Below are positions 3,322 through 61,586 of a stretch of 64,000 nt of DNA, in pieces. How positions within the stretch are numbered: the stretch's first letter is position 1; each line of letters starts with the position of its first letter. A program made the position numbers and the translations under genes. The stretch is from Escherichia coli. Its GTDB lineage: Bacteria > Pseudomonadota > Gammaproteobacteria > Enterobacterales > Enterobacteriaceae. The stretch is taken from assembly GCF_044647545.1 (NCBI RefSeq), contig NZ_CP172818.1, one strand, 5' to 3'. The notes under the pieces were generated by a model that was not told where the DNA came from, did not search any database, and saw nothing but the letters and a program-made list of their open reading frames with translations.

Positions 3322-4218
<897 letters not shown>

Positions 4219-4236
4219 TTAAGCGCGCGCTTCAAC

Positions 4237-6316: not shown

Positions 6317-10182
<3,866 letters not shown>

Positions 10183-38565: not shown

Positions 38566-41175
38566 ATGAAAATACCCACTACTACGGATATTCCGCAGAG
38601 GTATACCTGGTGTCTGGCCGGAATTTGTTATTCATCTCTTGCCATTTTACCCTCCTTTTTAAGCTATGCGGAAAGTTATTTCAACCCGGCATTTTTATTA
38701 GAGAATGGCACATCCGTTGCTGATTTATCGCACTTTGAGAGAGGTAATCATCAACCTGCGGGCGTGTATCGGGTGGATCTCTGGCGTAATGATGAGTTCA
38801 TTGGTTCACAGGATATCGTATTTGAATCGACGACAGTAAATACAGGTGATAAATCAGGTGGGTTAATGCCTTGTTTTAACCAGGCACTCCTTGAACGAAT
38901 TGGCCTTAATAGCAGTGCATTCCCCGAGTTAGCCCAGCAGCAAAATAATAAATGCATCAATTTACTGAAAGCTGTACCTGATGCCACAATTAACTTTGAT
39001 TTTGCAGCGATGCGCCTGAACATCACTATTCCTCAGATAGCGTTGTTGAGTAGCGCTCACGGTTATATTCCGCCTGAAGAGTGGGATGAAGGTATTCCTG
39101 CTTTACTCCTGAATTATAATTTCACCGGTAACAGAGGTAATGGTAACGATAGCTATTTTTTTAGTGAACTCAGCGGGATTAATATTGGCCCGTGGCGTTT
39201 ACGCAACAATGGTTCCTGGAATTATTTTCGCGGAAATGGATATCATTCAGAACAGTGGAATAATATTGGCACCTGGGTACAGCGCGCCATTATTCCGCTG
39301 AAAAGTGAACTGGTAATGGGAGACGGTAATACAGGGAGTGATATTTTCGATGGCGTTGGATTTCGAGGTGTACGGCTTTATTCTTCCGATAATATGTATC
39401 CTGATAGCCAGCAGGGATTTGCTCCAACGGTACGTGGGATTGCCCGTACGGCGGCCCAGCTAACGATTCGGCAAAATGGTTTTATTATCTATCAAAGCTA
39501 TGTTTCCCCCGGCGCTTTTGAAATTACAGATTTGCACCCGACATCTTCAAATGGCGATCTGGACGTCACCATCGACGAGCGTGATGGTAATCAGCAGAAT
39601 TACACGATTCCGTATTCAACAGTGCCAATTTTACAACGCGAAGGGCGTTTCAAATTTGACCTGACGGCGGGCGATTTTCGTAGCGGTAATAGTCAGCAAT
39701 CGTCGCCTTTCTTTTTTCAGGGCACGGCACTCGGCGGTTTACCACAGGAATTTACTGCCTACGGCGGGACGCAATTATCTGCAAATTACACCGCCTTTTT
39801 GTTAGGGCTGGGGCGCAACCTCGGGAACTGGGGCGCAGTGTCGCTGGATGTAACGCATGCGCGCAGTCAGTTAGCCGACGACAGTCGTCATGAGGGGGAT
39901 TCCATTCGCTTCCTCTATGCGAAATCAATGAACACTTTCGGCACCAATTTTCAGTTAATGGGTTACCGCTATTCGACACAAGGTTTTTATACTCTTGATG
40001 ATGTTGCGTATCGTCGAATGGAGGGGTACGAATATGATTACGATTATGACGGTGAGCATCGCGATGAACCGATAATCGTGAATTACCACAATTTACGCTT
40101 TAGTCGTAAAGACCGTTTGCAGTTAAATATTTCACAATCACTTAATGACTTTGGCTCGCTTTATATTTCTGGTACCCATCAAAAATACTGGAATACTTCG
40201 GATTCAGATACCTGGTATCAGGTGGGGTATACCAGCAGCTGGGTTGGCATCAGTTATTCACTCTCATTTTCGTGGAATGAATCTGTAGGGATCCCCGATA
40301 ACGAACGTATTGTCGGACTTAATGTTTCAGTGCCTTTCAATGTTCTGACCAAACGTCGCTACACCCGGGAAAATGCGCTCGACCGCGCTTATGCCTCCTT
40401 TAACGCCAACCGTAACAGCAACGGGCAAAATAGCTGGCTGGCAGGCGTTGGTGGGACCTTACTGGAAGGCCACAACCTGAGTTATCACGTAAGCCAGGGC
40501 GATACCTCGAATAATGGGTATACGGGCAGCGCCACGGCAAACTGGCAGGCCGCTTACGGTACGCTGGGGGTCGGGTATAACTACGACCGCGATCAACATG
40601 ACGTTAACTGGCAGCTGTCTGGCGGTGTGGTCGGGCATGAAAATGGTATAACGCTGAGCCAGCCTTTAGGGGATACCAATGTTTTGATTAAAGCGCCAGG
40701 CGCAGGCGGTGTACGCATTGAAAATCAAACTGGAATTTTAACCGACTGGCGCGGCTATGCGGTGATGCCGTATGCCACGGTTTATCGGTATAACCGTATC
40801 GCGCTTGATACCAATACGATGGGGAATTCCATCGATGTTGAAAAAAATATTAGCAGCGTTGTGCCGACGCAAGGCGCGTTGGTTCGTGCCAATTTTGATA
40901 CCCGCATAGGCGTGCGGGCGCTCATTACCGTTACCCAGGGCGGAAAACCGGTGCCGTTTGGATCACTGGTACGGGAAAACAGTACCGGAATAACCAGTAT
41001 GGTGGGTGATGACGGGCAAGTTTATTTAAGCGGTGCGCCATTGTCTGGTGAATTACTGGTTCAGTGGGGAGACGGCGCGAACTCACGCTGCATAGCGCAC
41101 TATGTATTGCCGAAGCAAAGCTTACAGCAAGCCGTCACTGTTATTTCGGCAGTTTGCACACATCCTGGCTCATAA
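38566..41175 (+). CDS. sfmD: Fimbrial outer membrane usher
   Basis: 869 aa usher ORF. Confidence 0.9.
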
Positions 41176-41187
41176 AGGAAATTATCA

Positions 41188-42195
41188 ATGAAGATAATCT
41201 GCAGATTATTATTGGCGATGGCATGTTTGTGGTTAACAAACATATCCTGGGCTACTGTTTGTGCAAATAGTACTGGCGTAGCAGAAGATGAACACTATGA
41301 TCTCTCAAATGTCTTTAATAGCACCAATAACCAGCCAGGGCAGATTGTTGTTTTACCGGAAAAATCCGGCTGGGTAGGTGTATCAGCAATTTGTCCACCC
41401 GGCACGCTGGTGAATTATACATACCGTAGTTATGTCACCAACTTTATTGTTCAGGAAACTATCGATAATTATAAATATATGCAATTAAATGATTATCTAT
41501 TAGGTGCGATGAGTCTGGTTGATAGCGTGATGGATATTCAATTCCCTCCGCAAAATTATATTCGTATGGGAACAGATCCTAACGTTTCGCAAAACCTTCC
41601 GTTCGGGGTGATGGATTCTCGTTTGATATTTCGTTTAAAGGTTATTCGTCCCTTTATTAACATGGTGGAGATCCCCAGACAGGTGATGTTTACCGTGTAT
41701 GTGACATCAACGCCTAACGATCCGTTGGTTACACCTGTTTATACCATTAGTTTTGGTGGCCGGGTTGAAGTACCGCAAAACTGCGAATTAAATGCCGGGC
41801 AAATTGTTGAATTTGATTTTGGTGATATCGGCGCATCGTTATTTAGTGCGGCAGGGCCGGGGAATCGACCAGCTGGTGTCATGCCGCAAACCAAGAGCAT
41901 TGCGATCAAATGTACGAATGTTGCTGCGCAGGCTTATTTAACAATGCGTCTGGAAGCCAGTGCCGTTTCTGGTCAGGCGATGGTGTCGGACAATCAGGAT
42001 TTAGGTTTTATTGTGGCCGATCAGAACGATACGCCGATCACGCCTAACGATCTCAATAGCGTTATTCCTTTCCGTCTGGATGCAGCTGCGGCAGCCAATG
42101 TCACACTTCGCGCCTGGCCTATCAGTATTACCGGTCAAAAACCGACCGAAGGGCCGTTTAGCGCGCTGGGGTATTTACGCGTCGATTATCAATGA
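41188..42195 (+). CDS. sfmH: Fimbrial adhesin-like subunit
   Basis: 335 aa signal-peptide ORF after usher. Confidence 0.8.
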   Translation: MKIICRLLLAMACLWLTNISWATVCANSTGVAEDEHYDLSNVFNSTNNQPGQIVVLPEKSGWVGVSAICPPGTLVNYTYRSYVTNFIVQETIDNYKYMQLNDYLLGAMSLVDSVMDIQFPPQNYIRMGTDPNVSQNLPFGVMDSRLIFRLKVIRPFINMVEIPRQVMFTVYVTSTPNDPLVTPVYTISFGGRVEVPQNCELNAGQIVEFDFGDIGASLFSAAGPGNRPAGVMPQTKSIAIKCTNVAAQAYLTMRLEASAVSGQAMVSDNQDLGFIVADQNDTPITPNDLNSVIPFRLDAAAAANVTLRAWPISITGQKPTEGPFSALGYLRVDYQ

Positions 42196-42205
42196 GGTAC
42201 GGAGA

Positions 42206-42721
42206 ATGAGAAGAGTACTCTTTAGCTGTTTCTGCGGGCTACTGTGGAGTTCCAGTGGATGGGCAGTTGACCCTTTAGGAACGATTAATATCAATTTGCA
42301 CGGTAACGTTGTTGATTTCTCCTGTACCGTAAACACAGCGGATAAGGATAAGACGGTAGATTTAGGCAGATGGCCTACGACACAATTACTGAGCGCTGGC
42401 GATACCACGGCACTCGTCCCTTTTAGCCTGCGGCTGGAGGGATGTCCTCCGGGTTCAGTTGCGATTTTATTTACGGGAACGCCGGCATCTGATGCCAACC
42501 TGCTGGCTCTGGATGATCCCGCAATGGCACAAACCGTCGCCATCGAATTACGTAATAGCGATCGCTCCCGGCTCGCACTGGGGGAGGCGAGCTCGACTGA
42601 GGAAGTTGATGCAAATGGCAATGTCACACTAAACTTTTTTGCCAATTATCGAGCGTTAGCCAGCGGTGTTCAGCCTGGTGTGGCGAAAGCGGATGCGATA
42701 TTTATGATCAATTATAATTAA
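42206..42721 (+). CDS. sfmF: Fimbrial minor subunit
   Basis: Start chosen at MRRVLFSCF; fimbrial subunit fold. Confidence 0.8.
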   Translation: MRRVLFSCFCGLLWSSSGWAVDPLGTININLHGNVVDFSCTVNTADKDKTVDLGRWPTTQLLSAGDTTALVPFSLRLEGCPPGSVAILFTGTPASDANLLALDDPAMAQTVAIELRNSDRSRLALGEASSTEEVDANGNVTLNFFANYRALASGVQPGVAKADAIFMINYN

Positions 42722-42723
42722 TA

Positions 42724-43356
42724 TTATATTAATTCATATAATTTGGCGTAGTCGATAAGCTCTACAATTGAATGCAAACCTAGCTTGCCATAAATATTAG
42801 ATTTATGTGCACTAACTGTTTTATTGCTAAGTAATAACTTATCGGCAATTTCTTTATTAGATAATCCGCTAACCAGATAACGTAATATGGTTACTTCACG
42901 ATTAGATAGCACAGTGACCGTTGAACTATTCGTACTACATTTATTGCTTTTTATATAGTTGAGCGTTTCGCTGGGAAAAAAAGTGTATCCGGAGAGAATC
43001 ATCTGAACGGCATGAAAAATATCATTCTGATCATTGCATTTACTGACAAAACCGTTAGCACCAGCTTGTATCGCTCTGCCAGCATAAAAGCATTCTGATT
43101 TCGATGATAAAAATAATACTTTCACTGTACTCTGAATTTGTTTGATCCTTTTTAGGAAGGTAAAACCGTCTGTACCGGGCAAGTCTATATCCATAATGAT
43201 TAAATCAACAGGACGGGTTCGGAGATAATCGATGGTTATGCGGTAATCATCCGTTTTCAGGACAATCTGCAATTCACTGTTTTTTTGCAACAGAACTTCA
43301 ATAGACATTCTGATGATAGGATGAGTATCCATAATGATCACCGACGTTGGTTTCAT
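42724..43356 (-). CDS. fimZ: LuxR-family response regulator of fimbrial expression
   Basis: REC domain plus C-terminal LuxR HTH; start chosen at MKPTSVIIMD. Confidence 0.85.
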   Translation of the reverse strand: MKPTSVIIMDTHPIIRMSIEVLLQKNSELQIVLKTDDYRITIDYLRTRPVDLIIMDIDLPGTDGFTFLKRIKQIQSTVKVLFLSSKSECFYAGRAIQAGANGFVSKCNDQNDIFHAVQMILSGYTFFPSETLNYIKSNKCSTNSSTVTVLSNREVTILRYLVSGLSNKEIADKLLLSNKTVSAHKSNIYGKLGLHSIVELIDYAKLYELI

Positions 43357-43538
43357 AGTTACCAGTCTCATTGGATCGGACAATTTTCCGTTAGGGCGGT
43401 AAATTGTACTTGATACATGAAAATACGGGTTTTCCTGATTCAGACGCGCAGCGGTGTGCGTTTGTTTGCCGCTATAACGAAATAAATCAGAAAATCAGAC
43501 GCGGTCGTTCACTTGTTCAGCAACCAGATCAAAAGCCA

Positions 43539-43566
43539 TTGACTCAGCAAGGGTTGACCGTATAAT
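43539..43566 (+). promoter_or_regulatory. Candidate sigma70 promoter for argU (-35 TTGACT, 16-bp spacer, -10 TATAAT)
   Basis: Consensus hexamers about 30 bp upstream of the tRNA 5-prime end. Confidence 0.45.
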
Positions 43567-43597
43567 TCACGCGATTACACCGCATTGCGGTATCAAC

Positions 43598-43674
43598 GCG
43601 CCCTTAGCTCAGTTGGATAGAGCAACGACCTTCTAAGTCGTGGGCCGCAGGTTCGAATCCTGCAGGGCGCGCCA
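43598..43674 (+). tRNA. argU: tRNA-Arg (anticodon UCU)
   Basis: Cloverleaf GCGCCCTTAGCTCAGTTGGATAGAGC...GGTTCGAATCC...GCGCCA; anticodon loop CTTCTAA. Confidence 0.9.
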
Positions 43675-43689
43675 TTACAATTCAATCAG

Positions 43690-44853
43690 TTACGCCTTCT
43701 TTATATCCTCCATAATTCCAGAGTGGGACATATTTGGGACATTATCACCAAAAATGTCGTCTATTTTCCTCGCATGCTCTGTCAAATGATTAGGCGCAAG
43801 GTGAGCATACCTACGAACCATTTCTATGGACTCCCATCCGCCCATTTCCTGAAGCACTGATAATGGGACGCCTGACTGAATCAGCCAGCTTGCCCAGGTG
43901 TGTCTGAGGTCATGGAAACGGAAATCTTCAATTCCTGCACGACGACAAGCTGATAGCCATGATGTCTTGCTGTCGATGCGCATCTTCCTGACCGCAGGCG
44001 TTGATGTTCCATCTGCTCGCTTAGCCGCCTTGGTATGTACAAACACCCATTTGTGATGCTTGCCTATTTGATCACGCAACACTTTACAGGCGGTATCGTT
44101 CAGCGCCACACCAATGGCGCGGTTTGATTTGCTCTCTTCTGGATTCACCCAGGCAACTCGTCGCTGCATGTCGATTTGTTGCCATTCCAGATTTATGATG
44201 TTCGACTTTCTCAGACCAGTTGCCAGCGCAAACTTGACGACAGATTTCAGTGGTTCGGGGCACTCATCAATAAGGCGTTTTGCTTCCTCCTTTTCCAGCC
44301 ATCTGACTCGCTTGTTTCTGACCGCTGGTATCTTGATGACAGGCGCTTTTTCCAGCCACTTCCAGTCGCGTTCTGCAGCACGGAGAATGGCCTTTATCAT
44401 GGCAAGATGCTTTGCCTTTGTCTGAGTTGATACTGGCTTTGGTTCATAAACAGGCAGTTCTTTACCTTTCCTGATGGCGGCCTGAACTTTCTGTTTCCAT
44501 ATTTCTTTCGTCTTTCTGTTATGCATTCTGCTTACAGCAGAGTAAATCTTTGCCTCCGAGATATCTTTAAGCCTTATACCCTCAAAATGTTCAAGCCAGA
44601 ACTCAATCCGGCTTTTATCTGAATCGAGAGATTTTTTATCAGCTTTTTCCTCAAGCCATCTTAGGCAGGCCTCTTCAAAAGTGACATCAGGTAAATCCCC
44701 TAGCTTTTCTACTCGCCAGAGTTCTGCTTTTCGCTTGTCGTGCAACTCCTGAGCTTGCCGCTTGTCCTTTGTGCCAAGAGATTCCTTAATTCGTTTCCCG
44801 CCCGGGAGCGAATACGAGGCATACCATATTTCATTTCTGCGGAAGAGTGACAT
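43690..44853 (-). CDS. intD: Prophage tyrosine integrase
   Basis: 387 aa ORF with C-terminal HxxR...Y catalytic region, adjacent to tRNA. Confidence 0.9.
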
Positions 44854-44972
44854 TTTCTTTCCTCTGTTATGCCATCACCCGCGCTCACCTGGACAGTATG
44901 CAGCGGAGACTGAAGCGCCGCAATGCAGGCTTGCCGTGTTGTGAGGTACCCGGATATTATCGTGAGGATGCG

Positions 44973-45311
44973 TCATCGCCATTGCTCCCCAAATACAAAA
45001 CCAATTTCAGCCAGTGCCTCGTCCATTTTTTCGATGAACTCCGGCACCATCTCGTCAAAACTCGCCATGTACTTTTCATCCCGCTCAACCACGACATAAT
45101 GCAGTCCTTCACGCTTCATACGCGGGTCATAGTTGGCAAAGTACCAGGCATCTTTTCGTGTCACCCACATGCTGTACTGCACCTGGGCCATGTAAGCCGA
45201 CTTTATGGCCTCGAAACCACCGAGCCGGAACTTCATGAAATCCCGGGAGGTACGAGTATTGCCGGAAGCGCGGGCTGTATCCGGATGCAGAGTCTTATCC
45301 GTGGAAATCAA
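44973..45311 (-). pseudogene. exoD: Lambda exonuclease-like C-terminal fragment
   Basis: 112-codon ORF with exo-like C-terminus, no intact N-terminus. Confidence 0.55.
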
Positions 45312-45349
45312 ACGCGCACTACTGGCTGGTTACCAACCTGTATCAGAAC

Positions 45350-45562
45350 ATGCGGGCCAATGCGTTGACTGACGCGGAATTACGGCGCAAGGCTGCCGAT
45401 GAACTGTCCTGTATGACCGCACGAATTAACCGTGGTGAGGCTATACCTGAACCAGTAAAACAACTTCCTGTCATGGGCGGTAGACCTCTAAATCGTGCAC
45501 AGGCTCTGGCGAAGATCGCAGAAATCAAAGCTAAGTTTGGGCTGAAAGGAGCAAGGGTATGA
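45350..45562 (+). pseudogene. peaD: Replication protein P-like C-terminal fragment, stop overlapping ren start
   Basis: 70-codon ORF ending in ATGA overlap with ren, the lambda P-ren junction arrangement. Confidence 0.5.
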
Positions 45563-45707
45563 CGGGCAAAGAGGCAATTATTCATTACCTGGGGACTCAT
45601 AAGAAATTCTGTGCGCAGGACGTTGCCGCGGTAACAGGCGCAACGGTAATCTGATCTTACCCAGCAATAGTGGACACGCGGCTAAGTGAGTAAACTCTCA
45701 GTCAGAG

Positions 45708-46016
45708 GTGACTCACATGACAAAAACAGTATCAACCAGTAAAAAACCCCGTAAACAGCATTCGCCTGAATTTCGCAGTGAAGCCCTGAAGCTTGCTGAA
45801 CGCATCGGTGTTACTGCCGCAGCCCGTGAACTCAGCCTGTATGAATCACAACTCTACAACTGGCGCAGTAAACAGCAAAATCAGCAGACGTCTTCTGAAC
45901 GTGAACTGGAGATGTCTACCGAGATTGCACGTCTCAAACGCCAGCTGGCAGAACGGGATGAAGAGCTGGCTATCCTCCAAAAGGCCGCGACATACTTCGC
46001 GAAGCGCCTGAAATGA
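45708..46016 (+). CDS. insE: IS3 transposase OrfA
   Basis: 102 aa [35 protein letters not shown]. Confidence 0.9.
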
Positions 46017-46879
46017 AGTATGTCTTTATTGAAAAACATCAGGCTGAGTTCAGCATCAAAGCAATGTGCCGCGTGCTCCGGGTGGCCCGCAGCGGCTGGT
46101 ATACGTGGTGTCAGCGGCGGACAAGGATAAGCACGCGTCAGCAGTTCCGCCAACACTGCGACAGCGTTGTCCTCGCGGCTTTTACCCGGTCAAAACAGCG
46201 TTACGGTGCCCCACGCCTGACGGATGAACTGCGTGCTCAGGGTTACCCCTTTAACGTAAAAACCGTGGCGGCAAGCCTGCGCCGTCAGGGACTGAGGGCA
46301 AAGGCCTCCCGGAAGTTCAGCCCGGTCAGCTACCGCGCACACGGCCTGCCTGTGTCAGAAAATCTGTTGGAGCAGGATTTTTACGCCAGTGGCCCGAACC
46401 AGAAGTGGGCAGGAGACATCACGTACTTACGTACAGATGAAGGCTGGCTGTATCTGGCAGTGGTCATTGACCTGTGGTCACGTGCCGTTATTGGCTGGTC
46501 AATGTCGCCACGCATGACGGCGCAACTGGCCTGCGATGCCCTGCAGATGGCGCTGTGGCGGCGTAAGAGGCCCCGGAACGTTATCGTTCACACGGACCGT
46601 GGAGGCCAGTACTGTTCAGCAGATTATCAGGCGCAACTGAAGCGGCATAATCTGCGTGGAAGTATGAGCGCAAAAGGTTGCTGCTACGATAATGCCTGCG
46701 TGGAAAGCTTCTTTCATTCGCTGAAAGTGGAATGTATCCATGGAGAACACTTTATCAGCCGGGAAATAATGCGGGCAACGGTGTTTAATTATATCGAATG
46801 TGATTACAATCGGTGGCGGCGGCACAGTTGGTGTGGCGGCCTCAGTCCGGAACAATTTGAAAACAAGAACCTCGCTTAG
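46013..46879 (+). CDS. insF: IS3 transposase OrfB (DDE)
   Basis: 288 aa DDE integrase-core ORF in -1 frame relative to orfA. Confidence 0.9.
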
Positions 46880-47189
46880 GCCTGTGTCCATATTACGTGG
46901 GTAGGATCAACCAGCATAAATCAGGCTGCGGCTAAAATGGCACGGGCAGGTCTTCTGGCTATCGAAGGTAAGGTCTGGCGAACGGTGTATTACCGGTTTG
47001 CTACCAGAGAAGAACGGGAAGGAAAGGTGAGCACGAATCTGATTTTTAAGGAGTGTCGCCAGAGTGCCGCGATGAAACGGGTATTGAGGGTATATAAAAG
47101 AACATCAATGGGTACACAATGATGAAACAGGTGAGTTGAGTTCAAACTGTAGTACAATTCTCTCCAGTTTGAACAGGAAAGAATATTCT

Positions 47190-47522
47190 ATGAACCCTTA
47201 TATTTATCTTGGTGGTGCAATACTTGCAGAGGTCATTGGTACAACCTTAATGAAGTTTTCAGAAGGTTTTACACGGTTATGGCCATCTGTTGGTACAATT
47301 ATTTGTTATTGTGCATCATTCTGGTTATTAGCTCAGACGCTGGCTTATATTCCTACAGGGATTGCTTATGCTATCTGGTCAGGAGTCGGTATTGTCCTGA
47401 TTAGCTTACTGTCATGGGGACTTTTCGGCCAACGGCTGGACCTGCCAGCCATTATAGGCATGATGTTGATTTGTGCCGGTGTGTTGGTTATTAATTTATT
47501 GTCACGAAGCACACCACATTAA
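47190..47522 (+). CDS. emrE: Small multidrug resistance efflux protein EmrE
   Basis: 110 aa from MNPYIYLGGAILAEVIGTT with conserved membrane-embedded Glu14. Confidence 0.9.
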   Translation: MNPYIYLGGAILAEVIGTTLMKFSEGFTRLWPSVGTIICYCASFWLLAQTLAYIPTGIAYAIWSGVGIVLISLLSWGLFGQRLDLPAIIGMMLICAGVLVINLLSRSTPH

Positions 47523-47553
47523 AAATAATTTGTTTCTAAACGACTAAAATATG

Positions 47554-47587
47554 GAGGCTCTTATATTTATATGAGCCTCGTTTTATG
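47554..47587 (+). terminator. Rho-independent terminator after emrE
   Basis: GAGGCTC-12 nt loop-GAGCCTC followed by GTTTT. Confidence 0.5.
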
Positions 47588-47778
47588 CTTTTTGTTAATG
47601 TCTTTATTTTTTTATGTATTCTTTTGTGCTTTCAAGATTATGGCGTAAGAAAATTGCAATACGATTATTGTTGTATATTCAAGATAATGTGACCTTAATT
47701 GTCTTTTTAAATAAAAATTAAACAAAAATTATATCCCACCACTAAGGTTTATAAAAGCATACGTTAGCAGGTGTCACC

Positions 47779-49305
47779 ATGAAAAAAGCCATAGCATATA
47801 TGCGATTTTCATCACCAGGTCAGATGTCTGGCGACTCATTAAACCGACAGAGAAGACTTATTGCTGAATGGTTAAAGGTAAATAGTGATTATTATCTTGA
47901 TACCATAACATATGAAGATTTAGGATTAAGTGCATTCAAAGGAAAGCATGCACAATCAGGAGCTTTTTCGGAATTTTTAGATGCTATAGAGCATGGTTAT
48001 ATATTGCCAGGAACTACATTGTTAGTTGAAAGTCTGGACAGACTTTCAAGAGAAAAAGTCGGTGAAGCGATTGAACGTCTGAAATTGATTTTGAATCACG
48101 GTATTGATGTTATAACTCTTTGCGACAATACAGTCTATAATATTGACTCTTTGAATGAGCCATATTCATTAATAAAAGCCATACTTATAGCACAAAGGGC
48201 AAATGAAGAAAGCGAGATAAAGTCAAGTCGGGTTAAATTATCATGGAAGAAAAAACGGCAGGATGCACTGGAATCAGGTACGATTATGACGGCGTCTTGT
48301 CCGAGATGGCTCTCCTTAGATGACAAAAGAACGGCTTTTGTTCCAGACCCCGACAGGGTGAAAACTATTGAGCTAATTTTTAAACTCAGGATGGAAAGGC
48401 GCTCATTGAATGCAATAGCCAAGTATTTAAATGATCATGCTGTAAAGAATTTCTCAGGAAAAGAAAGTGCATGGGGACCTTCTGTAATTGAAAAATTATT
48501 AGCGAATAAAGCTCTGATAGGTATATGCGTACCTTCATATCGTGCAAGAGGTAAAGGAATAAGTGAAATCGCTGGCTATTATCCCAGAGTCATATCAGAT
48601 GATTTGTTTTACGCTGTACAGGAAATTCGGTTGGCACCTTTTGGTATTAGCAATAGTAGCAAAAATCCTATGTTGATAAATCTACTTCGAACAGTTATGA
48701 AGTGCGAGGCTTGTGGTAATACCATGATTGTTCATGCGGTATCTGGAAGTTTGCATGGCTATTATGTTTGTCCGATGAGAAGACTGCATCGATGTGACAG
48801 GCCATCAATAAAGAGAGATTTGGTTGATTATAATATCATTAATGAGTTGCTTTTTAATTGTAGTAAAATCCAACCAGTTGAAAACAAGAAAGATGCTAAT
48901 GAAACTTTAGAGTTGAAAATTATTGAGCTCCAGATGAAAATTAATAATTTAATTGCTGCATTATCTGTTGCGCCTGAAGTTACCGCTATAGCAGAAAAAA
49001 TCAGAGTATTAGATAAGGAATTACGAAGGGCTTCTGTATCATTAAAAACTTTGAAGAGTAAAGCGGTGAGTTCACTTGGTGATTTTCATGCTATTGACTT
49101 AACCAGTAAAAATGGGCGAGAGCTATGTCGTACACTTGCCTATAAAACATTCGAAAAAATCATAATCAATACAGATAATAAAACCTGTGATATCTATTTT
49201 ATGAATGGCATTGTTTTTAAACACTATCCTTTAATGAAAACAATATCCGCCCAGCAGGCGATAAGTACTCTCAAATATATGGTTGATGGTGAGGTTTATT
49301 TTTGA
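47779..49305 (+). CDS. ybcK: Large serine recombinase-like protein
   Basis: N-terminal resolvase catalytic domain (AYMRFSSPGQ), recombinase domain and Cys-rich zinc ribbon. Confidence 0.85.
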   Translation: MKKAIAYMRFSSPGQMSGDSLNRQRRLIAEWLKVNSDYYLDTITYEDLGLSAFKGKHAQSGAFSEFLDAIEHGYILPGTTLLVESLDRLSREKVGEAIERLKLILNHGIDVITLCDNTVYNIDSLNEPYSLIKAILIAQRANEESEIKSSRVKLSWKKKRQDALESGTIMTASCPRWLSLDDKRTAFVPDPDRVKTIELIFKLRMERRSLNAIAKYLNDHAVKNFSGKESAWGPSVIEKLLANKALIGICVPSYRARGKGISEIAGYYPRVISDDLFYAVQEIRLAPFGISNSSKNPMLINLLRTVMKCEACGNTMIVHAVSGSLHGYYVCPMRRLHRCDRPSIKRDLVDYNIINELLFNCSKIQPVENKKDANETLELKIIELQMKINNLIAALSVAPEVTAIAEKIRVLDKELRRASVSLKTLKSKAVSSLGDFHAIDLTSKNGRELCRTLAYKTFEKIIINTDNKTCDIYFMNGIVFKHYPLMKTISAQQAISTLKYMVDGEVYF

Positions 49306-49500
49306 GTAATAATCTTTTTTACGTCGTGCTATAGTAAGAAAGTGCAAGACAGAATTAATTATCTTTGACGAAACTTAATGGGTAATTACTTTGTTTGCTC
49401 CCACAAGCGAGTTTTGTACGGCTGTATTGGGGTAGTAAATGAGCTATACAATCTTAATCATTTGTTAGGTGAGAACTCTTGGTCGCAGATTCAAATACTG

Positions 49501-49550
49501 AAAATACGTGACAAATTATTATGAGCAAAATGGTGTATGTCACGTATTTT
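49501..49550. repeat. Perfect 13-bp inverted repeat (AAAATACGTGACA / TGTCACGTATTTT) with 24-bp spacer
   Basis: Read directly in ybcK-ybcL intergenic region. Confidence 0.6.
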
Positions 49551-49762
49551 GAATGGTAGGTTAAAAAATAACACCGACTTTCGTAGGTATTACTAATAAT
49601 AAAGCAGAGTTTTTAGATAGTATCAATGTGCTTTGTGTATATTGTGGCAAATAATTGGGTTGCTGAGGGGTAGAATGTGATTGCTTTTGCATGAACACTT
49701 TATGCATAATGAGATAAAGGAATATCAAATAAAGAACGATAGGTCATAACAAAGAGGTTTTT

Positions 49763-50312
49763 ATGAAAACACTTATCGTTTCAACTGTATTGGCATTCAT
49801 AACATTTTCTGCGCAGGCTGCAGCATTTCAGGTCACTAGTAATGAAATAAAAACAGGAGAGCAACTTACAACGTCTCATGTCTTTCTCGATTTGGGTGTG
49901 AAGGTGGTAATACATCGCCCTCATTAACCTGGTCTGGTGTTCCTGAAGGTACCAAAAGCTTTGCCGTAACTGTATATGATCCAGATGCACCTACAGGCAG
50001 TGGTTGGTGGCATTGGACTGTTGTTAATATTCCAGCAACAGTAACATATTTTCCGTTGATGCAGGGAGACGTGATGGAACAAAACTGCCGACTGGTGCTG
50101 TTCAAGGCCGAAATGATTTTGGCTATGCTGGGTTTGGTGGCGCATGTCCTCCTAAAGGAGATAAACCACATCATTACCAGTTTAAAGTATGGGCTCTAAA
50201 AACTGAAAAGATTCCTGTAGATTCTAACTCCAGCGGAGCGTTAGTTGGTTATATGCTTAATGCTAATAAAATCGCAACCGCTGAGATAACACCAGTTTAT
50301 GAGATAAAGTAG
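49763..50312 (+). pseudogene. ybcL: PEBP/RKIP-family periplasmic protein gene disrupted by two single-base frameshifts
   Basis: Signal peptide frame stops after 54 codons; [13 protein letters not shown] segment in -1 frame; [10 protein letters not shown] segment in a further -1 frame; total 550 bp. Confidence 0.75.
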
Positions 50313-50321
50313 GGTGAGAGT

Positions 50322-51119
50322 ATGCTGGCAAGAGGTAAGACTAACTTAAAGATCGAAGAAATACGGATGCATAAACATCATGAGATTCATAGGGTTAAGC
50401 CTCTTATGCCAGCTTTGTGTCGTATCCGTCAGGGAAAGAAAGTTATCAATTGGGAGACGCATACTTTAACTGTTGATAATAATCAAATAATATTATTTCC
50501 TTGTGGTTATGAATTTTATATTGAGAATTATCCTGAAGCAGGGCTTTATCTTGCAGAAATGCTTTACTTACCCATTGATTTAATTGAGAGTTTCCAAAAA
50601 CTTTATACGGTAACTGATCAAATACGTAACAAAACAAGTTTCTTTTTACCTCAGAATCCTGAGTTAATATATTGTTGGGAGCAACTAAAAACATCTGTTT
50701 CCCGAGGCTTCTCAACTAAAATTCAGGAGCACTTAGCAATGGGCGTTCTACTTTCGTTAGGAGTGAATCATGTTAATCATTTACTTTTATCATATAGTAA
50801 ACAATCATTGATAAGTCGTTGTTATAACCTGCTGCTATCCGAACCCGGCACAAAATGGACAGCAAACAAGGTTGCTCGATATCTCTACATTTCTGTTTCT
50901 ACATTACATCGCCGTCTAGCAAGCGAGGGGGTAAGTTTCCAAAGTATACTGGACGATGTGAGGTTAAATAATGCGTTGTCTGCTATACAAACGACGGTAA
51001 AACCTATAAGCGAGATTGCCAGAGAAAATGGTTATAAGTGTCCTTCTCGTTTTACTGAAAGATTTCATAATCGTTTTAATATAACACCAAGAGAGATAAG
51101 AAAAGCTTCCAGAGAGTAA
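50322..51119 (+). CDS. ybcM: AraC-family transcriptional regulator
   Basis: C-terminal AraC HTH ([26 protein letters not shown]). Confidence 0.8.
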
Positions 51120-51333
51120 AAGTGTTTTAAGAAGGAGCAATTCTATCGATTTTGATTTGCGATAATCAACTCGCCATAATCATGTCATCGGAGCCTGAAC
51201 AACTCCGGTGACTTCTGCGCTAAACGGGGACGTTTATGCGCACACACAATCCAAACTCTCTTCTCCCTCCACAGATGCAGAAATGCACCTGCGATATATT
51301 GTATCCAGCGTTTGACCTCTGCGGAGGTGAAGC

Positions 51334-51789
51334 GTGAATCTCCCACAAGATGGCATCAAATTACATCGCGGTAACTTCACCGCTATCGGTCGGCAGATCC
51401 AGCCTTATCTGGAGGAGGGCAAATGCTTTCGCATGGTGCTTAAACCGTGGCGTGAGAAACGCAGTCTTTCCCAGAATGCACTCAGCCACATGTGGTACAG
51501 CGAAATCAGTGAATACCTCATCAGCAGGGGTAAAACGTTCGCTACTCCAGCTTGGGTAAAAGATGCTCTCAAACACACATATCTCGGTTATGAAACCAAA
51601 GACCTGGTTGATGTCGTAACCGGTGATATCACCACTATCCAGTCGTTACGCCATACCTCCGATCTTGATACCGGAGAGATGTATGTCTTCCTGTGTAAGG
51701 TTGAAGCCTGGGCGGTGAATATTGGCTGCCACCTGACTATTCCGCAGAGCTGCGAGTTCCAGCTGCTCCGCGACAAGCAGGAGGCGTAA
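51334..51789 (+). CDS. ybcN: Prophage protein YbcN
   Basis: 151 aa ORF at head of nin-like gene block. Confidence 0.75.
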
Positions 51790-51959
51790 TGGCTACACCG
51801 CTTATTCGTGTCATGAACGGACACATCTACAGAGTACCAGATCGTCGTAAGCGTAAACCGGAGCTGAAGCCTTCCGAAATACCAACACTGCTCGGATATA
51901 CCGCCAGCCTGGTTGATAAAAAATGGTTGCGACTGGCAGCAAGGAGGAATCATGGCTGA
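51789..51959 (+). CDS. ninE: NinE-like protein
   Basis: 56 aa [21 protein letters not shown]..., start overlaps ybcN stop. Confidence 0.7.
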   Translation: MATPLIRVMNGHIYRVPDRRKRKPELKPSEIPTLLGYTASLVDKKWLRLAARRNHG

Positions 51960-52242
51960 TTTGAGAAAAGCAGCGCGTAGTCGGGAATGCCAGGTAAGAA
52001 TCCCTGGCGTATGTAATGGCAACCCTGAAACGTCTGTACTGGCACATATCCGGCTGACTGGATTGTGCGGCACCGGTACCAAACCGCCAGACCTGATTGC
52101 CACCATTGCATGTTCTGCCTGCCACGACGAAATCGACCGCCGCACACATTTTGTCGATGCTGCATATGCAAAAGAATGCGCGCTGGAAGGTATGGCGAGA
52201 ACACAGGTTATCTGGCTGAAAGAGGGGGTTATTAAGGCGTGA
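51952..52242 (+). CDS. ybcO: Prophage protein YbcO
   Basis: 96 aa Cys-rich ORF overlapping ninE end. Confidence 0.75.
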
Positions 52243-52601
52243 ATACCTACAGCATCACATTACCCTGGCCTCCGAGCAATAATCGCTATTACCGCCATAA
52301 TCGCGGGCGCACGCACGTCAGCGCAGAGGGGCAGGCATACCGCGATAACGTCGCCCGAATCATTAAAAACGCAATGCTGGATATCGGCCTGGCTATGCCT
52401 GTGAAAATCCGCATTGAGTGCCACATGCCGGATCGCCGTCGCCGTGACCTGGATAATCTGCAAAAAGCCGCTTTTGACGCACTCACTAAAGCAGGTTTCT
52501 GGCTGGATGATGCTCAGGTCGTTGATTACCGCGTTGTGAAGATGCCTGTTACCAAAGGTGGGAGGCTGGAACTGACCATCACCGAAATGGGGAATGAATG
52601 A
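52239..52601 (+). CDS. rusA: Holliday junction resolvase RusA
   Basis: 120 aa ORF with RusA catalytic Asp cluster. Confidence 0.9.
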
Positions 52602-52738
52602 TGTTTGAGTTTTATATGGCAGAACGTCTTCGCCACCGCTGGGGGCGTCTGCGCTTATATCGTTTCCCCGGTTCTGTTTTGACCGATTACCGAATACTGA
52701 AGAATTACGCCAAAACCCTGACAGGAGCAGGAGTATGA
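52598..52738 (+). CDS. ylcG: Small prophage protein YlcG
   Basis: 46 aa ORF with start overlapping rusA stop. Confidence 0.55.
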
Positions 52739-52823
52739 AGTCAGAGATAACAATCAACTAATACTGTTTCGTTGATTTTTGCTTGTAATTGGCGTTCTGG
52801 TCTGATTTTTGTGGAGTAAGTTG

Positions 52824-53207
52824 ATGCGTGATATTCAGATGGTTCTTGAGCGTTGGGGAGCGTGGGCGGCTAATAATCATGAAGATGTGACCTGGTCGTC
52901 CATTGCCGCCGGTTTTAAGGGATTAATTACTTCAAAAGTAAAATCTCGCCCACAATGTTGTGACGATGACGCGATGATCATTTGCGGGTGCATGGCCCGT
53001 CTGAAAAAGAACAACAGCGATTTGCATGATTTATTGGTGGACTATTATGTCGGCGGCATGACTTTTATGGCGCTTGCACGTAAGCATGGGCGATCTGATT
53101 GTTGGGTTGGCAGGATGCTTCAGAAAGCTGAGGGCGTAGTGGAGGGTATGCTGATGGTGTTGGATCTCCGATTGGAGATGGATGTCGTTGTTAATAACTC
53201 TAATTAA
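52824..53207 (+). CDS. quuD: Lambda Q-like late antiterminator
   Basis: 127 aa from [14 protein letters not shown] with Cys-rich zinc motif. Confidence 0.85.
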
Positions 53208-53458
53208 TATGCCAATTGTTTACTAAAAATTATTAAAAATGGGGCGTTGAGACGCCCCCAAAAATAAAGGGTAATATATAACAGAAGGTTTATATAGTTA
53301 GAAGCAAGGTTGTGCTTCTAAAGGAAGTGGCTTGAGGGAGCCACTTATATGTTGGGGAGGCAACGCCTCCCGCAACATATCTTTTTCGTAATCAGATTAG
53401 AACTGGTAAACCAGACCTACAGCAACGATGTCATCAGTGCTTACACCGAGTGCTTTAG

Positions 53459-54653
<1,195 letters not shown>

Positions 54654-56110
54654 TTAGTGAAGTCATTTTTGTCAAGCAGGTTGATTTTGTAATCAACGAA
54701 AGTAGACATATTTTTGTTGAAGTAATAGGTTGCACCTACATCAACATATTTGACTAAGTCCTGATCGCCCCATACTCCAAGATCCTTACCTTTAGATTGC
54801 AGGTAAGCAACGGACGGACGCAGACCGAAATCGAACTGATATTGTGCAACAGCTTCGAAGTTTTGGGCTTTATTAGCAACGAAGTGATCAGCAAATACAG
54901 TCATATTCTGGGTTTCAGAATAGGTAGTGGCCAGGTAAATGTTGTTAGCGTCATATTTCAGACCTGCGGCCCAAACTTCTGCATTTTTACCGGAAGCAAA
55001 TACTTCAGGAAGAACTTTCCCTGCATTAACTTGAGTGTCGGTACGATCAGATTTCGCATAAGTTGCACCGATACCGAATCCTTCGTATTCATAGGTAGCA
55101 GAGAAACCGAAGCCATCACCGTTACCTTCAGTGTAGTTATCGAAATCGCTACGATCGTTTTTGCCTTGGTACTGAATCGCAAAATCAAGACCATCAACCA
55201 GGCCAAGAAATCATAGTTACGGTAGGTTGCAACACCGTTGGTACGACCATTCATGAAGTTGTCAGCGGAAGCCCAGGAATCGCCACCCCATTCAACTAAC
55301 ATATCGGTATAAGCTGCGGCATCATAAGCAACACCGTAGTTACGGCCATAGTCAAATGACCACTCGTTATATTTCAAACCGGCGAAGGTTAAACGGGTTT
55401 TTTCCTGGTTTTCACCTTCGGGCTTGCTGGCGTCGAGGTTGTATTCAAACTGACCAAAACCAGTCAGTTCGCTGGTGATTTGGGTTTCACCTTTGAAGCC
55501 AAGACGGGCATAAGTAGTATCACCATCATCTGCATCATTAGAGGAGAAGTAGTGCTTAGCATTAACTTTCCCGTACAGATCCAGCTTGTTACTGTCTTTA
55601 TTATAAATTTCAGCTGCCTGAGCAGACATCGCCATTAGTACTGATGCAGCTACAGCAGAAATTGCCACTGTTAATTTTTTCATCGTGAGCCCTTTTTTTG
55701 AACTATTATTAAAAAATGATGTCACTGCGCGATAAATATTCATCTAATCAATGTGATTATTTCAAGATGTAAGTTTTGGTTTCTCGTTTGATTTGTGAAG
55801 TAGATCTCTATTTTTATCTGAACTTTTTTCTATCGAATCCTATTCATGGCTCTTGGCTGAATAAAAATAAATCTATTAGCCAATTTATATTAACGGCTGT
55901 TATTTATAAGTGCTCTATAATTTGAAGGTTCAATTTAAACCGGCTAAAAATAACACTGGAAATTATTTTTTGGTTATTTGTTGAGATTTGCTTATGTATT
56001 TGTAGTGGTGTTTTCAATACTCGGTAGCATTCTCTCAAATATCATTTAGTGGTTTACGTACGTAAAAAATTGGTTATGCTGTTAAGAGTGGTTACTTCGT
56101 CACACAGCTT

Positions 56111-56140
56111 AAACCCGCCGTCGAGCGGGTTTTTCCATTT
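56111..56140 (+). terminator. tR-prime-like terminator upstream of holin gene
   Basis: AAACCCGC-CGTCGA-GCGGGTTT followed by T run. Confidence 0.5.
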
Positions 56141-56258
56141 TTTGAGTCTCGATATTAGCTGATAACCCAATACCTGAGTTATTCACTGACTCCGAGTCTG
56201 TTACGTTTCGTAGTATTCCCTCAATTTACACCCATCCGTTATTTGCGGAGGTGAGGCT

Positions 56259-56474
56259 ATGAAATCCATGGATAAGTTAACAACGGGCATTGCCTACGGC
56301 ACCTCCGCAGGCAGTGCTGGCTACTGGTTTTTACAGCTGCTCGATAAAGTCACGCCCTCACAGTGGGCAGCAATAGGTGTGCTGGGTAGCTTGGTATTTG
56401 GCCTGCTGACGTACCTGACAAACCTTTATTTCAAGATTAAAGAAGATAAGCGCAAGGCTGCGAGAGGTGAATAA
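56259..56474 (+). CDS. essD: Class I holin (lambda S-like)
   Basis: 71 aa small TM protein heading the lysis cassette. Confidence 0.9.
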
Positions 56475-56971
56475 TGCCTCCATCATTACGAAAAGCCGTT
56501 GCTGCTGCTATTGGTGGCGGAGCAATTGCTATAGCATCAGTGTTAATCACTGGCCCAAGTGGTAACGATGGTCTGGAAGGTGTCAGCTACATACCATACA
56601 AAGATATCGTTGGCGTATGGACTGTATGTCACGGGCATACAGGAAAAGACATCATTCCCGGTAAAACGTATACCGAAGCAGAATGCAAAGCCCTCCTGAA
56701 TAAAGACCTTGCCACGGTAGCCAGACAAATTAACCCGTACATCAAAGTCGATATACCGGAAACAACGCGCGGCGCTCTTTACTCGTTCGTCTATAACGTG
56801 GGCGCAGGCAATTTCAGAACATCTACTCTTCTTCGCAAAATAAACCAGGGCGATATCAAGGGCGCATGTGACCAGCTACGTCGCTGGGCATACGCTGGCG
56901 GTAAGCAATGGAAAGGCCTGATGACTCGTCGTGAGATTGAGCGTGAGGTCTGTTTGTGGGGGCAACAATGA
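56474..56971 (+). CDS. rrrD: Phage lysozyme (T4 e-like endolysin)
   Basis: 165 aa ORF with glycoside hydrolase 24 catalytic E...D...T region. Confidence 0.9.
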
Positions 56972-57342
56972 GCAGAGTCACCGCGATTATCTCCGCTCTG
57001 GTTATCTGCATCATCGTCTGCCTGTCATGGGCTGTTAATCATTACCGTGATAACGCCATCGCCTACAAAGAACAGCGCGATAAAAAAGTCAGTGAGCTGA
57101 AGCAGGCGACCGCCACCATTACTGACATGCAGCAGCGCCAGCGTGATGCTGATGCACTCGATGCTAAATACACGAAGGAGTTAGCTGATGCGAAAGCTGA
57201 AAATGATGCTCTTCGGCGCAAGCTTGATAATGGTGGTCGGGTGCTCGTCAAAGGAAAATGCCCTGTGCCATCCTCAGCCGAAACCTCCAGCGCCTCCGGC
57301 ATGGGCAATGATGCCACCGTCGAACTCAAAGACCGAGAATAA
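56968..57342 (+). CDS. rzpD: Rz-like spanin (i-spanin), apparently truncated by frameshift
   Basis: [32 protein letters not shown]-terminus as in lambda Rz; frame stops after 124 codons. Confidence 0.7.
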
Positions 57343-57445: not shown

Positions 57446-57601
57446 CGATTATTTTACTCATCATTCCCTTCACATCTGGCTCTGTAGACAGTTCACTTCT
57501 GAAATCCAATAAACATCTCATTCTGATGCTTGATATTGAGCATTTTGCGCGCGGTAAGGGGCTGCGTTGAGATAAGAACCAGTAAAAATAAACCAGGATT
57601 T

Positions 57602-57663
57602 AGCCTCGCATTCGCGGGGCTTTTTATTGCCATTACAAAAGCCACTTCCTACAGAGTGGCTTT
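57602..57663. terminator. Back-to-back hairpins (bidirectional terminator) after lysis cassette
   Basis: GCCTCGC..GCGGGGCTTTTT and AAAAGCCACT-8 nt-AGTGGCTTT. Confidence 0.45.
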
Positions 57664-57919
57664 GATAATGGTTTATACCCTACACGGGATAACTTAACTG
57701 ATATCCCTTTTAAAGGATAAAGGTATTCAAGCCTGACACATCATGCGCTGTATCGTCGCCGTATTCCCGTATTAACAGAGACCGTAGCCCGACGGGGAAC
57801 TCCTTCTGCGCGAGTGTGCGGGAATAATCAAAAACGATGCACACCGGGGTTACCGGGTACACATATTTCATCATGCCAGCGAGTCCGGTTCTGGCACGGA
57901 AGAAACCGGACGTTATGAT

Positions 57920-58330
57920 TTAGTGCGGAAATATTTGTGTAGTGTTCTGAATGTTCTCAGTAAAGAGTAATGAATTATCAAAGGTATAGTAATACCTTTT
58001 GTTTTCGTGGATATTTGTAATCCATCTGAAAACCCCTGCTGTAGCAAGATTTTTCCTGTATTCGTAAAATGATAACTCTCCTGATTTGAATCCTTTTAAG
58101 GTGGCTTCTATAAGGCATTTATTTTTTGAAAATCTTACATTTACAACCTTACCCTGTCCTTTTATTAAAACCGTATTATCGTTTTCAAGAACAAGATGAA
58201 TATTCTCTGTAGCTAAATAGTAAATGTAATGTGAGACATTGTGACGTTTTAGTTCAGAATAAAACCAGTGATAGTTTAAATTATTTCGCACTTTATCGAA
58301 TATTTGTTTAAAAATGGCAACCTGAGCCAT
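57920..58330 (-). CDS. ybcV: DUF1398-family prophage protein
   Basis: [21 protein letters not shown]... Confidence 0.75.
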
Positions 58331-60602: not shown

Positions 60603-61187
60603 CTATTTTTTTCCTGAAGCGGAAAACATTACTACAGTACCTTGAACCTTGGTTTTAACATTCTCGAAATGCTCTGAGAGTATATGTGTTAAGCCTTCTT
60701 CGGAATCTTTTGTGTTTGAAAAGATGCCTTTCTGATTGTAAATGCGCATCAGTTTTTGACCGAAGCTATTGTGCACAACTCCATCGCCAAGAATTGTGGC
60801 TCCGTATAGAGTTCCATCGTCAGTTAAGGCCTGCGCCGCATTGCGTATTACACAGCTTTTTGTAGATATATTTCCAGGCAGGCAGTGAAGAAGGTAAGAC
60901 ATGGAAATGGAATCAAATTGACCATGTAACGCCGCGGGATAAGGTTCAAAAACATCATGGCTAATTTTATGTTTAATTTTTGATTCCCCAGCCCTTGTAG
61001 ATGCCGCGTTCAGGCTAGCTTCGTTCAAATCCATTAAAGATATCAGACTACTCTCAGGTACGTGAGTAAGGTAAAACCCAGTTCCAACACCAATATCCAG
61101 ATGGTTGTTACCTAAATGTTCCAGAAAGTGTGGAAGAAGGTGTTCCTTTGTAGGACATCCCCATGCAAGCCGATTTGATACTCCCAA
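60603..61187 (-). CDS. ybcY: SAM-dependent methyltransferase-like protein (possibly truncated)
   Basis: ORF with methyltransferase motif LDIGVGTGF. Confidence 0.7.
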   Translation of the reverse strand: MGVSNRLAWGCPTKEHLLPHFLEHLGNNHLDIGVGTGFYLTHVPESSLISLMDLNEASLNAASTRAGESKIKHKISHDVFEPYPAALHGQFDSISMSYLLHCLPGNISTKSCVIRNAAQALTDDGTLYGATILGDGVVHNSFGQKLMRIYNQKGIFSNTKDSEEGLTHILSEHFENVKTKVQGTVVMFSASGKK

Positions 61188-61325
61188 AACCCACCAGTCA
61201 TAAAGCTTTAGGGTAAGTGGTGTGTAAATTCTAGCCCCATCATCTGTGTTTTTTTATTAATTTCACCATGTTATAGTTTTATTTGTGAATTAAATCAATT
61301 ATGGCAATGAATTACAAGGGGTTAA

Positions 61326-61586
61326 ATGCTGCCGCAGCATAGCGATATTGAAATAGCCTGGTATGCTTCAATACAGCAGGAGCCGAATGGCTGGAAGACC
61401 GTCACCACACAGTTCTACATCCAGGAATTCAGTGAGTATATTGCGCCACTGCAGGATGCTGTAGATCTGGAAATCGCAACGGAGGAAGAAAACTCGTTGC
61501 TGGAAGCCTGGAAAAAGTATCGGGTGCTGCTAAACCGTGTGGACACTTCCGTAGCACCAGATATCGAGTGGCTTATTCAACCATAA
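61326..61586 (+). pseudogene. tfaX: Tail fiber assembly protein C-terminal fragment
   Basis: 86-codon ORF whose C-terminal ~50 residues repeat the aaaD tail. Confidence 0.7.

Follow-up and report, generated by a model that had tools for sequence, protein, structure and literature searches.

Low-GC clusters of cargo genes located between ren and the nin region are a known kind of architecture in lambdoid phages and are textbook lambdoid mosaicism. In lambda itself, ren is followed by 73 bp containing the tR2 hairpin and then by ninB, in agreement with an earlier note on the DNA studied here, which has the nin region directly after ren. Mobile elements such as Tn4451, Tn5397, and SCCmec have defined ends that their recombinase recognizes, and the circles formed on their excision include the recombinase gene. 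The serine invertases PinQ, PinR, and PinE were reported to have host-beneficial roles in phage defence by inversion (PMC12529663). We analyzed a stretch of 64,000 nucleotides of Escherichia coli DNA (contig NZ_CP172818.1, assembly GCF_044647545.1; hereafter, the window), in which AT-rich DNA between ren and ybcN contains the emrE, ybcK, ybcL, and ybcM genes, ybcK encoding a large serine recombinase. All four genes are already annotated in the cryptic prophage DLP12 of K-12. The earlier note had proposed that they may form a separately acquired integrative cassette moved by the recombinase. Our analyses support the foreign nature and the separate acquisition of this DNA, but not its behavior as one unit, and no recombinase-type ends were found. 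The block is probably layered phage cargo, acquired and exchanged piecewise by normal mosaicism in the ren-nin interval of DLP12-type phages, with ybcK as a captured integrase-type gene.

Positions 40901–57212 of the window aligned as a single block with a K-12-like chromosome (97.2% identity) and correspond to a lambdoid prophage of the DLP12 type. From left to right, the region contains the sfm genes, tRNA-Arg, intD, exo', P', ren' truncated by the insertion sequence (IS) IS3, emrE, ybcK, ybcL, ybcM, ylcH, ybcN, ninE, ybcO, rusA, ylcG, quuD, IS5, and nmpC. The insertion sites of IS3 in ren and of IS5 before nmpC are exactly those of K-12. The differences from K-12 over this region are clustered, for example at 53000–53100 and 54750–55500, and no complete E. 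coli genome matched the full block at more than 98.0% identity.

The GC content falls from about 0.46–0.50 in the flanks to 0.32–0.40 across ~47200–51200. Comparative breakpoints set the edges of the AT-rich cargo block at ~47095 and 51150, slightly wider than the limits of 47136–51119 given in the earlier note, which had located the block correctly. With a GC content of 0.364, 47095–51150 is the lowest of all the 4,056-bp intervals in the 64 kb (mean 0.492, standard deviation 0.049), and 0.08% of these intervals are as low, which upholds the description of an AT-rich block lying between renD and ybcN. The block consists of two parts of different history: 47095–49343, which contains emrE and ybcK and travels with the phage backbone, and 49344–51150, a variable cargo slot, here of the K-12 type, composed of a 268-bp leader, ybcL, and ybcM.

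This division is seen in the distribution of the parts. A search of 5,426 complete E. coli genomes with 46900–51400 as the query gave matches in 4,516 of them, but at least 80% of the block was present in only 670. The segment containing ybcK (47530–49611) was found in 1,426 genomes, and the K-12-type leader of ybcL-ybcM (49380–49611) in 674, as a single copy in each. The full arrangement occurs in K-12, in B strains, and in some O157 strains. A second arrangement, in which ren-emrE-ybcK is followed by other DNA and then by ylcH-ybcN, was observed in EC19, EDL933, 88-3493, AVS0756, and Perceval, a virion-producing prophage of strain LF82 whose emrE was reported to be a moron induced in Dulbecco's modified Eagle medium (PMC9928086). 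In these five, homology to the window is unbroken from 46909 to 49343 and comes back at 51150/51151. Their slots contain a P22AR-C-like open reading frame (ORF) together with differing second genes (EC19 and 88-3493), an alpha/beta hydrolase (AVS0756 and Perceval), or only ~280 bp (EDL933, in a prophage located at icd). The fS54a prophage, which contains neither emrE nor ybcK, has five other genes between ren and ylcH-ybcN. Finally, emrE-ybcL-ybcM lacking ybcK was found beside fliE in 15 of 30 evenly spaced match rows, i.e., in about half of the matching records.

The same picture was obtained from viral sequences. A scan of IMG/VR recovered 80 loci with an E. coli-type ybcK, and ren and emrE precede ybcK in all of those with upstream DNA. 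At least eight lengths were distinguished for the DNA between ybcK and the right-hand backbone (282, 1152, 1176, 1219, 1363, 1538, 1619, and 1820 bp), and forms disrupted by IS elements were also present. Most of the non-K-12 slots open with one and the same P22AR-C-like ORF and differ from one another farther on. Since ren-emrE-ybcK is contiguous, and 95–100% identical, in each intact phage or prophage examined, while the downstream slot is varied, ren-emrE-ybcK can be regarded as the backbone of this phage lineage and ybcL-ybcM as one filling of the slot. Together with its foreign composition, the absence of the block from lambda and from some DLP12-type relatives indicates that its acquisition was separate from that of the phage backbone. 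Neither the 80 viral loci nor the genomes sampled included an intact phage carrying emrE-ybcL-ybcM but devoid of ybcK. Lambdoid prophages in which ren directly abuts ybcN, which the earlier note had suggested looking for, were also absent from the sampled records, the nearest being the EDL933 type, with emrE-ybcK and 280 bp. In E. coli c1-17, an IS1 element is located 191 bp after emrE and is directly followed by envY, ybcH, and nfrA, ybcK and the prophage to its right being deleted. The map of the locus is modular, with a backbone-like ren-emrE-ybcK followed by an exchangeable slot.

The copies located beside fliE, between fliE and yedK in E. coli HH45 and ATCC 25922, were 96–99.5% and 88–92% identical to the window, respectively. 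Homology of this island to the window, with the order conserved, covers 47113–47529 (emrE), 49612–51336 (ybcL, ybcM, and 186 bp of phage backbone, 51151–51336, in which ylcH lies), 53148–53463 (the 3' end of Q), and 54654–56020 (an nmpC-type porin). Because it is colinear with DLP12, the island reads as a fixed, decayed DLP12-type prophage relic that has lost 47530–49611 and 51337–53147 in two deletions, and not as a re-inserted cassette. The absence of ybcK from it is thus most simply explained by a deletion in decaying DNA and is no evidence for movement of a cassette without its recombinase or for a later insertion of ybcK. Such a relic would account for the presence of emrE-ybcL-ybcM beside fliE in about half of the matching E. 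coli records.

The junctions of the block were analyzed in parallel. The left breakpoint varies with the comparator, being at 47091 for fS54a, at ~47094 for lambda, and at 47113 for the fliE relic. The right breakpoint is at 51150 in phages and at 51336 in the fliE remnant. The earlier note had suggested a search for imperfect inverted repeats flanking 47130 and 51130 as candidate attachment sites, and none was detected above chance. Terminal direct or inverted repeats were not found at 47095–47136 or 51119–51151, and a repeat search over 46900–51500, covering the block and its sub-modules, returned only short chance-level matches. Likewise, the sequences flanking ybcK or the block edges had only 11–17-nt chance matches elsewhere in the 64 kb, and no inverted site pair of the kind used by invertases was present in the window. 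No local inverted repeat was found to travel with ybcK across cargo types or orthologues, and a scan for 50-bp att-like dyads beside ybcK in four cargo types and beside four orthologues gave P ≥ 0.1 against shuffled sequences in all cases. The cargo-internal right ends of six cargo types had no shared motif. The earlier note had held that a composition uniform with the flanking phage DNA, or identical junctions in all related lambdoid phages without recombinase-type boundaries, would contradict its idea; the composition is not uniform and the junctions are not the same everywhere, but the recombinase-type boundaries that it predicted were looked for and not found. Taken together, these results give a clear negative for a cassette mobilized by the recombinase.

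Two repeats were considered as candidate sites and rejected. A perfect 13-bp inverted repeat, AAAATACGTGACA-N24-TGTCACGTATTTT (49501–49550), lies 196 bp downstream of ybcK. As an attP it was set aside, being confined to the K-12-type leader (674 genomes) and absent from the other phages that carry ybcK; it was seen with the ybcL-ybcM slot alone, does not accompany ybcK, and showed, as a 50-bp dyad, no excess over shuffle expectation. Binding of a regulator or termination of transcription are possible functions of this repeat. The CTATAG-type repeats located just 3' of ybcK in EC19/Perceval-type loci were discarded as well, since the hexamer is self-complementary and no significant dyad was present.

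We propose that the cargo genes are lysogenic-conversion "morons" that would have been gathered in a hypervariable interval between ren and the tR2/ninB-position gene. A first layer, from the 3' end of ren to ybcK (47095–49343), would be backbone-like in this lineage. In the second layer, the slot at 49344–51150, the content would be swapped between phages, ybcL-ybcM being one of at least eight alternatives. Exchange of the slot could take place by homologous recombination in its flanks, with ybcK on the left and the palindrome, ylcH, and ybcN on the right, together with occasional illegitimate joins that selection would retain at functional boundaries, and site-specific recombination by YbcK is probably not involved. 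Homologous exchange is supported by the pairing of EC19-type flanks with a K-12-type slot in the window, and by the ybcK alleles, which are themselves mosaic: that of K-12 differs from the window in its 5' half and is identical in its 3' half, and those of B, O157 TR01, and 07-4299 differ in the 3' half and not in the 5' half. In K-12, a Rho/NusG-dependent terminator was reported in the 5' untranslated region (UTR) of ybcK (PMC4150792), and Hfq/polyphosphate binds the ybcK gene. The low-GC DNA is thus transcriptionally silenced in K-12, with the exception of individual cargo genes such as emrE.

Several observations nevertheless weigh against this explanation, the main one being the precision of the slot swap in the window. 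The flanks of the window are of the EC19 type (pig isolate), with 0–5 differences over 46909–49343 and none over 51151–52000, but its slot is of the K-12 type, and the alleles switch in the intervals 49338–49344 and 51150–51159, within 6–9 bp of both slot boundaries. Since simple homologous recombination usually drags along flanking donor single-nucleotide polymorphisms, a more precise exchange at the slot boundaries is possible, and a purely homologous mechanism explains this point poorly. In all of the five other full-block genomes examined, the 30–40 bp on the backbone side of each boundary are ~30% divergent. None of the 80 viral loci and none of the complete E. coli genomes combined EC19-type flanks with a K-12-type slot, and an exact search for the junction between the common-type ybcK tail and the K-12-type slot gave no match in species-representative genomes. 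In addition, all cargo types have one and the same right junction, just before a TTGATT-N6-AATCAA palindrome, and the strong purifying selection on ybcK, described below, means that the protein has some activity. The distribution also rests on the individual inspection of about 120 of the ~1,400 ybcK-bearing genomes. As for expression, a promoter consensus scan gave 16 promoter-like sites against 15.8 expected, with no enrichment over shuffles, and a terminator consensus scan showed no enrichment over shuffles either, so that autonomous expression of the moron kind draws only on the literature and on one hairpin.

The ybcK gene (47779–49305, + strand, as are ren', emrE, ybcL, ybcM, and ybcN) is intact and encodes a protein of 508 aa. 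Its domains, as the earlier note had stated from the sequence, are those of a serine recombinase: Resolvase (PF00239, E = 7.7e-19), Recombinase (PF07508, E = 2.3e-14), and Zn_ribbon_recom (PF13408, E = 8.2e-8) in Pfam. In 11 orthologues (42–60% identity), the RFS motif R9-F10-S11, of which S11 is the nucleophile, D87-R88-L89-S90-R91-E92, R140, E143, E144, and the zinc-ribbon cysteines Cys309, Cys312, Cys331, and Cys339 are invariant. Seven E. coli ybcK alleles were examined and all were intact at 508 aa, with a pairwise dN/dS of 0.04–0.11 for dS values of up to 0.18. A phmmer search of YbcK against PDB sequences returned no match, and a profile search reached SPβ SprA alone (E = 2e-5). An AlphaFold2 model of moderate quality (pLDDT 77.6, pTM 0.36) predicted a catalytic domain, an αE helix (129–166), a helical recombinase domain (191–300), and a zinc ribbon with a coiled coil formed by long helices (370–397 and 402–430). 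With this model, Foldseek found full-length matches to the SprA, PhiC31, and Bxb1 integrases (E = 1e-17 to 1e-12). By sequence and predicted fold, YbcK thus qualifies as a bona fide large serine recombinase that is under purifying selection.

The position of ybcK and of its relatives bears on its origin. In the window, ~0.7 kb of the block lies to the left of the gene and ~1.8 kb to its right, so that it is not near an end. In Atlantibacter, Yersinia, Erwinia, and Ewingella, orthologues with 50–59% identity are the last gene of the prophage, which is the position of an integrase, the one from Atlantibacter being located 540 bp from the 3' end of ssrA; their position suggests that these proteins may act as integrases. 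Other orthologues are found inside nin-like regions (Pantoea and a 60%-identity relative) or in a plasmid-like region (Citrobacter). As some Enterobacterales orthologues hold the position of an integrase at prophage ends, E. coli ybcK would most likely derive from a phage integrase captured into the early region. In E. coli, the phages that carry ybcK also have a canonical tyrosine Int/Xis, as does Perceval, and YbcK is therefore not the integrase of these phages. In the literature mentioning ybcK, a recombination function was not assigned to it, and excision of the H47 island was unaffected by a ybcK deletion.

In the 60%-identity relative, a nin gene encoding a DUF1367 protein is partially duplicated, with 83% identity, and the duplication bounds the recombinase segment. 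It is a scar of homologous or illegitimate recombination between diverged phages, and not an att site. On the lambdoid contig of this relative, the recombinase, KGG, and DinI genes are located between a 59-codon 5' fragment and the full DUF1367 copy (7623–7851 and 10608–10831 of that contig), and a SIR2-domain gene is present upstream in the same interval.

In another reading, YbcK would act on a site directly 3' of its own gene, the slot being a product of cassette capture or exchange, or a secondary attachment site. The strong purifying selection, the intact catalytic and zinc-binding residues, the start of cargo variability 38 bp past the ybcK stop codon, the coincidence of the allele switches with the two slot boundaries to within 6–9 bp, and the identity of the right junction across cargo types are in favor of such a role, and related large serine recombinases adjoin variable DNA or prophage-host junctions in other genera. 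However, most of the other slots have a further ~100–450 bp in common (the P22AR-C-like ORF) before they part, each at a different point, and 49343 is a junction solely between the K-12-type slot and the others, with weak similarity persisting ~40 bp beyond it. Moreover, the cargo-internal right ends have no common motif, dyad symmetry beside ybcK or its orthologues does not exceed chance, the fS54a prophage uses the same right junction although it lacks ybcK, and the segment of the 60%-identity relative is bounded by a recombination scar. We therefore consider it unlikely that the slot is a platform for YbcK.

In a more general form, YbcK could be catalytically active, kept by DLP12/Perceval-type lambdoid phages in addition to their tyrosine integrase at a fixed place of the early region, and act on an unrecognized site, a proposal to which we also give little weight. 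If it were true, the role of YbcK would be the exchange of the cargo slot, or the use of the slot position as a second attachment site, or else, as for PinQ/PinR, the rearrangement of DNA at another place to the advantage of phage or host, and the allele switches at the slot boundaries and the single right junction would be footprints of its activity. A complete and strongly conserved YbcK is encoded by roughly one in four complete E. coli genomes.

Alternatively, emrE-ybcL-ybcM could be an ancestral trio, with the ~2.08-kb ybcK segment (47530–49611) later inserted as a solo mobile gene into the emrE-ybcL spacer. In the fliE island, this spacer is indeed only 168 bp long and is made of 47523–47529 joined to 49612–49762 of the window, with AATAAT at both edges of the missing segment. 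However, this 6-bp repeat, the sole feature at these edges, is chance-level in DNA of 30% GC, and the island is decaying and has also lost ybcN through Q, which makes a second deletion the simpler explanation. In addition, 49344–49611 is never found with ybcK in phages of other cargo types, but only with ybcL-ybcM, and an intact phage with the trio and without ybcK was seen neither in the 80 viral loci nor in the genomes sampled. It is thus doubtful that ybcK was inserted in this way. Lastly, that YbcK inserted the whole emrE-ybcK-ybcL-ybcM block between ren and nin as a single integrative cassette, movable as a unit, is very improbable, since the distinct composition, the intact and selected recombinase, and the absence from lambda that speak for it are outweighed by the occurrence of emrE-ybcK without ybcL/ybcM and of emrE-ybcL-ybcM without ybcK, the internal position of ybcK, a left breakpoint that varies (47091, 47094, and 47113), the failure to find terminal repeats or att-like dyads, and a second location that is a colinear prophage remnant with 186 bp of backbone, the 3' end of Q, and nmpC.

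At the left edge, ren' (renD, 46937–47122) is a 3' fragment of ren, truncated by an IS3 element that extends to ~46908 on its right side; the fragment is annotated by RefSeq as "protein ren", incomplete, at the colinear K-12-like position. The homology of ren to lambda and to other prophages stops at ~47091–47095. A 13-nt inverted repeat, GTTCAAACTGTAG / CTCCAGTTTGAAC, with a 9-nt loop (47140–47174, + strand), lies between the ren stop and the emrE start and is also present in the fliE-side remnant. The emrE gene (47190–47522) is intact and encodes an SMR multidrug efflux pump of 110 aa (PF00893), which scored 239.6 bits against the NCBIfam EmrE model (cutoff 226), in agreement with its earlier identification; 47136 is an upstream TTG start of the same ORF. 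The emrE-ybcK spacer (47523–47778, + strand; GC 0.27) holds a hairpin, the small ORF ylcJ, and the ybcK 5' UTR. The hairpin, at 47554–47579, lies 3' of emrE and is terminator-like, with a T-rich run after it. In the window, ylcJ (47571–47721) is probably frameshifted, as it is annotated to be in EC19, whose emrE-ybcK spacer has no differences from that of the window; it is intact in K-12 and B strains.

In the slot, ybcL (49763–50312), which encodes a PEBP/Raf-kinase-inhibitor-like periplasmic protein, is a pseudogene with 1-nt deletions near 49883 and 50052, as judged by alignment to the intact 183-aa orthologue of E. coli HH45 (PF01161). The gene is thus inactivated, as had been claimed, or the two deletions are homopolymer sequencing errors. 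The ybcM gene (50322–51119) is intact and encodes an AraC-family transcriptional regulator of 265 aa with an AraC-type helix-turn-helix, and its identity was confirmed with Pfam. To the right, the conserved start of the backbone (51151–51338, + strand) is common to all cargo types and includes the palindrome (51152–51169), a CCGGAG-N9-CTCCGG hairpin (51189–51209), and ylcH. The TTGATT and AATCAA arms of the palindrome are conserved and its spacer is variable across the cargo types compared. In every cargo variant, the right junction is marked by the palindrome and the hairpin (51152–51209), which sit where lambda has tR2, before the ninB-position gene. The small ORF ylcH (51237–51338), where a hypothetical 33-aa coding sequence is annotated in several genomes, overlaps the start of ybcN (51334–51789), the NinB-position gene, with which the nin region begins on the right side of the block. 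A search of 46800–51600 against Rfam found no RNA family, and no PADLOC defence-system model matched YbcK, YbcM, or EmrE. Other stretches of very low GC content (down to 0.28) are present at 61000–62750 and also at 57500–58250, toward the right end of the prophage region; from their position in K-12, these are presumably appY and its neighbors.

With regard to described systems, the block resembles Tn4451 (TnpX), Tn5397 (TndX), and SCCmec (CcrAB) in linking a large serine recombinase to accessory or resistance-type cargo, here emrE. Unlike these elements, its ends are undefined, its cargo and ybcK segregate independently, and its sub-modules have no flanking repeats. PinQ, PinR, and PinE are, like YbcK, serine recombinases kept in (cryptic) lambdoid prophages; they are, however, small invertases with inverted crossover sites around an invertible segment, whereas YbcK is a large serine recombinase.

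The large serine integrases (SPβ SprA, φC31 Int, Bxb1 Int, TP901-1, and Listeria A118-type) share their domain order with YbcK, i.e., a serine catalytic domain, a long αE helix, a recombinase domain, and a Cys4 zinc ribbon with a coiled-coil insertion, and YbcK orthologues are located at prophage termini. YbcK differs from them in being very distant in sequence and in lying, in E. coli, in the early region (ren-nin) of phages that already have a tyrosine Int/Xis, with no attP-like site found beside it and no recombination directionality factor candidate identified.

Finally, the block differs from the morons and mosaic modules of lambdoid phages (lom, bor, the nin mosaic, and emrE, nmpC, and appY of DLP12) in that one of its genes, under purifying selection, encodes a large serine recombinase of full length, an atypical content for a moron. 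It is similar to them in being composed of non-lytic genes of low GC content, with a deviant composition (0.364), and in its location between conserved phage genes, where it is replaced or absent in relatives and where the junctions fall at functional boundaries.

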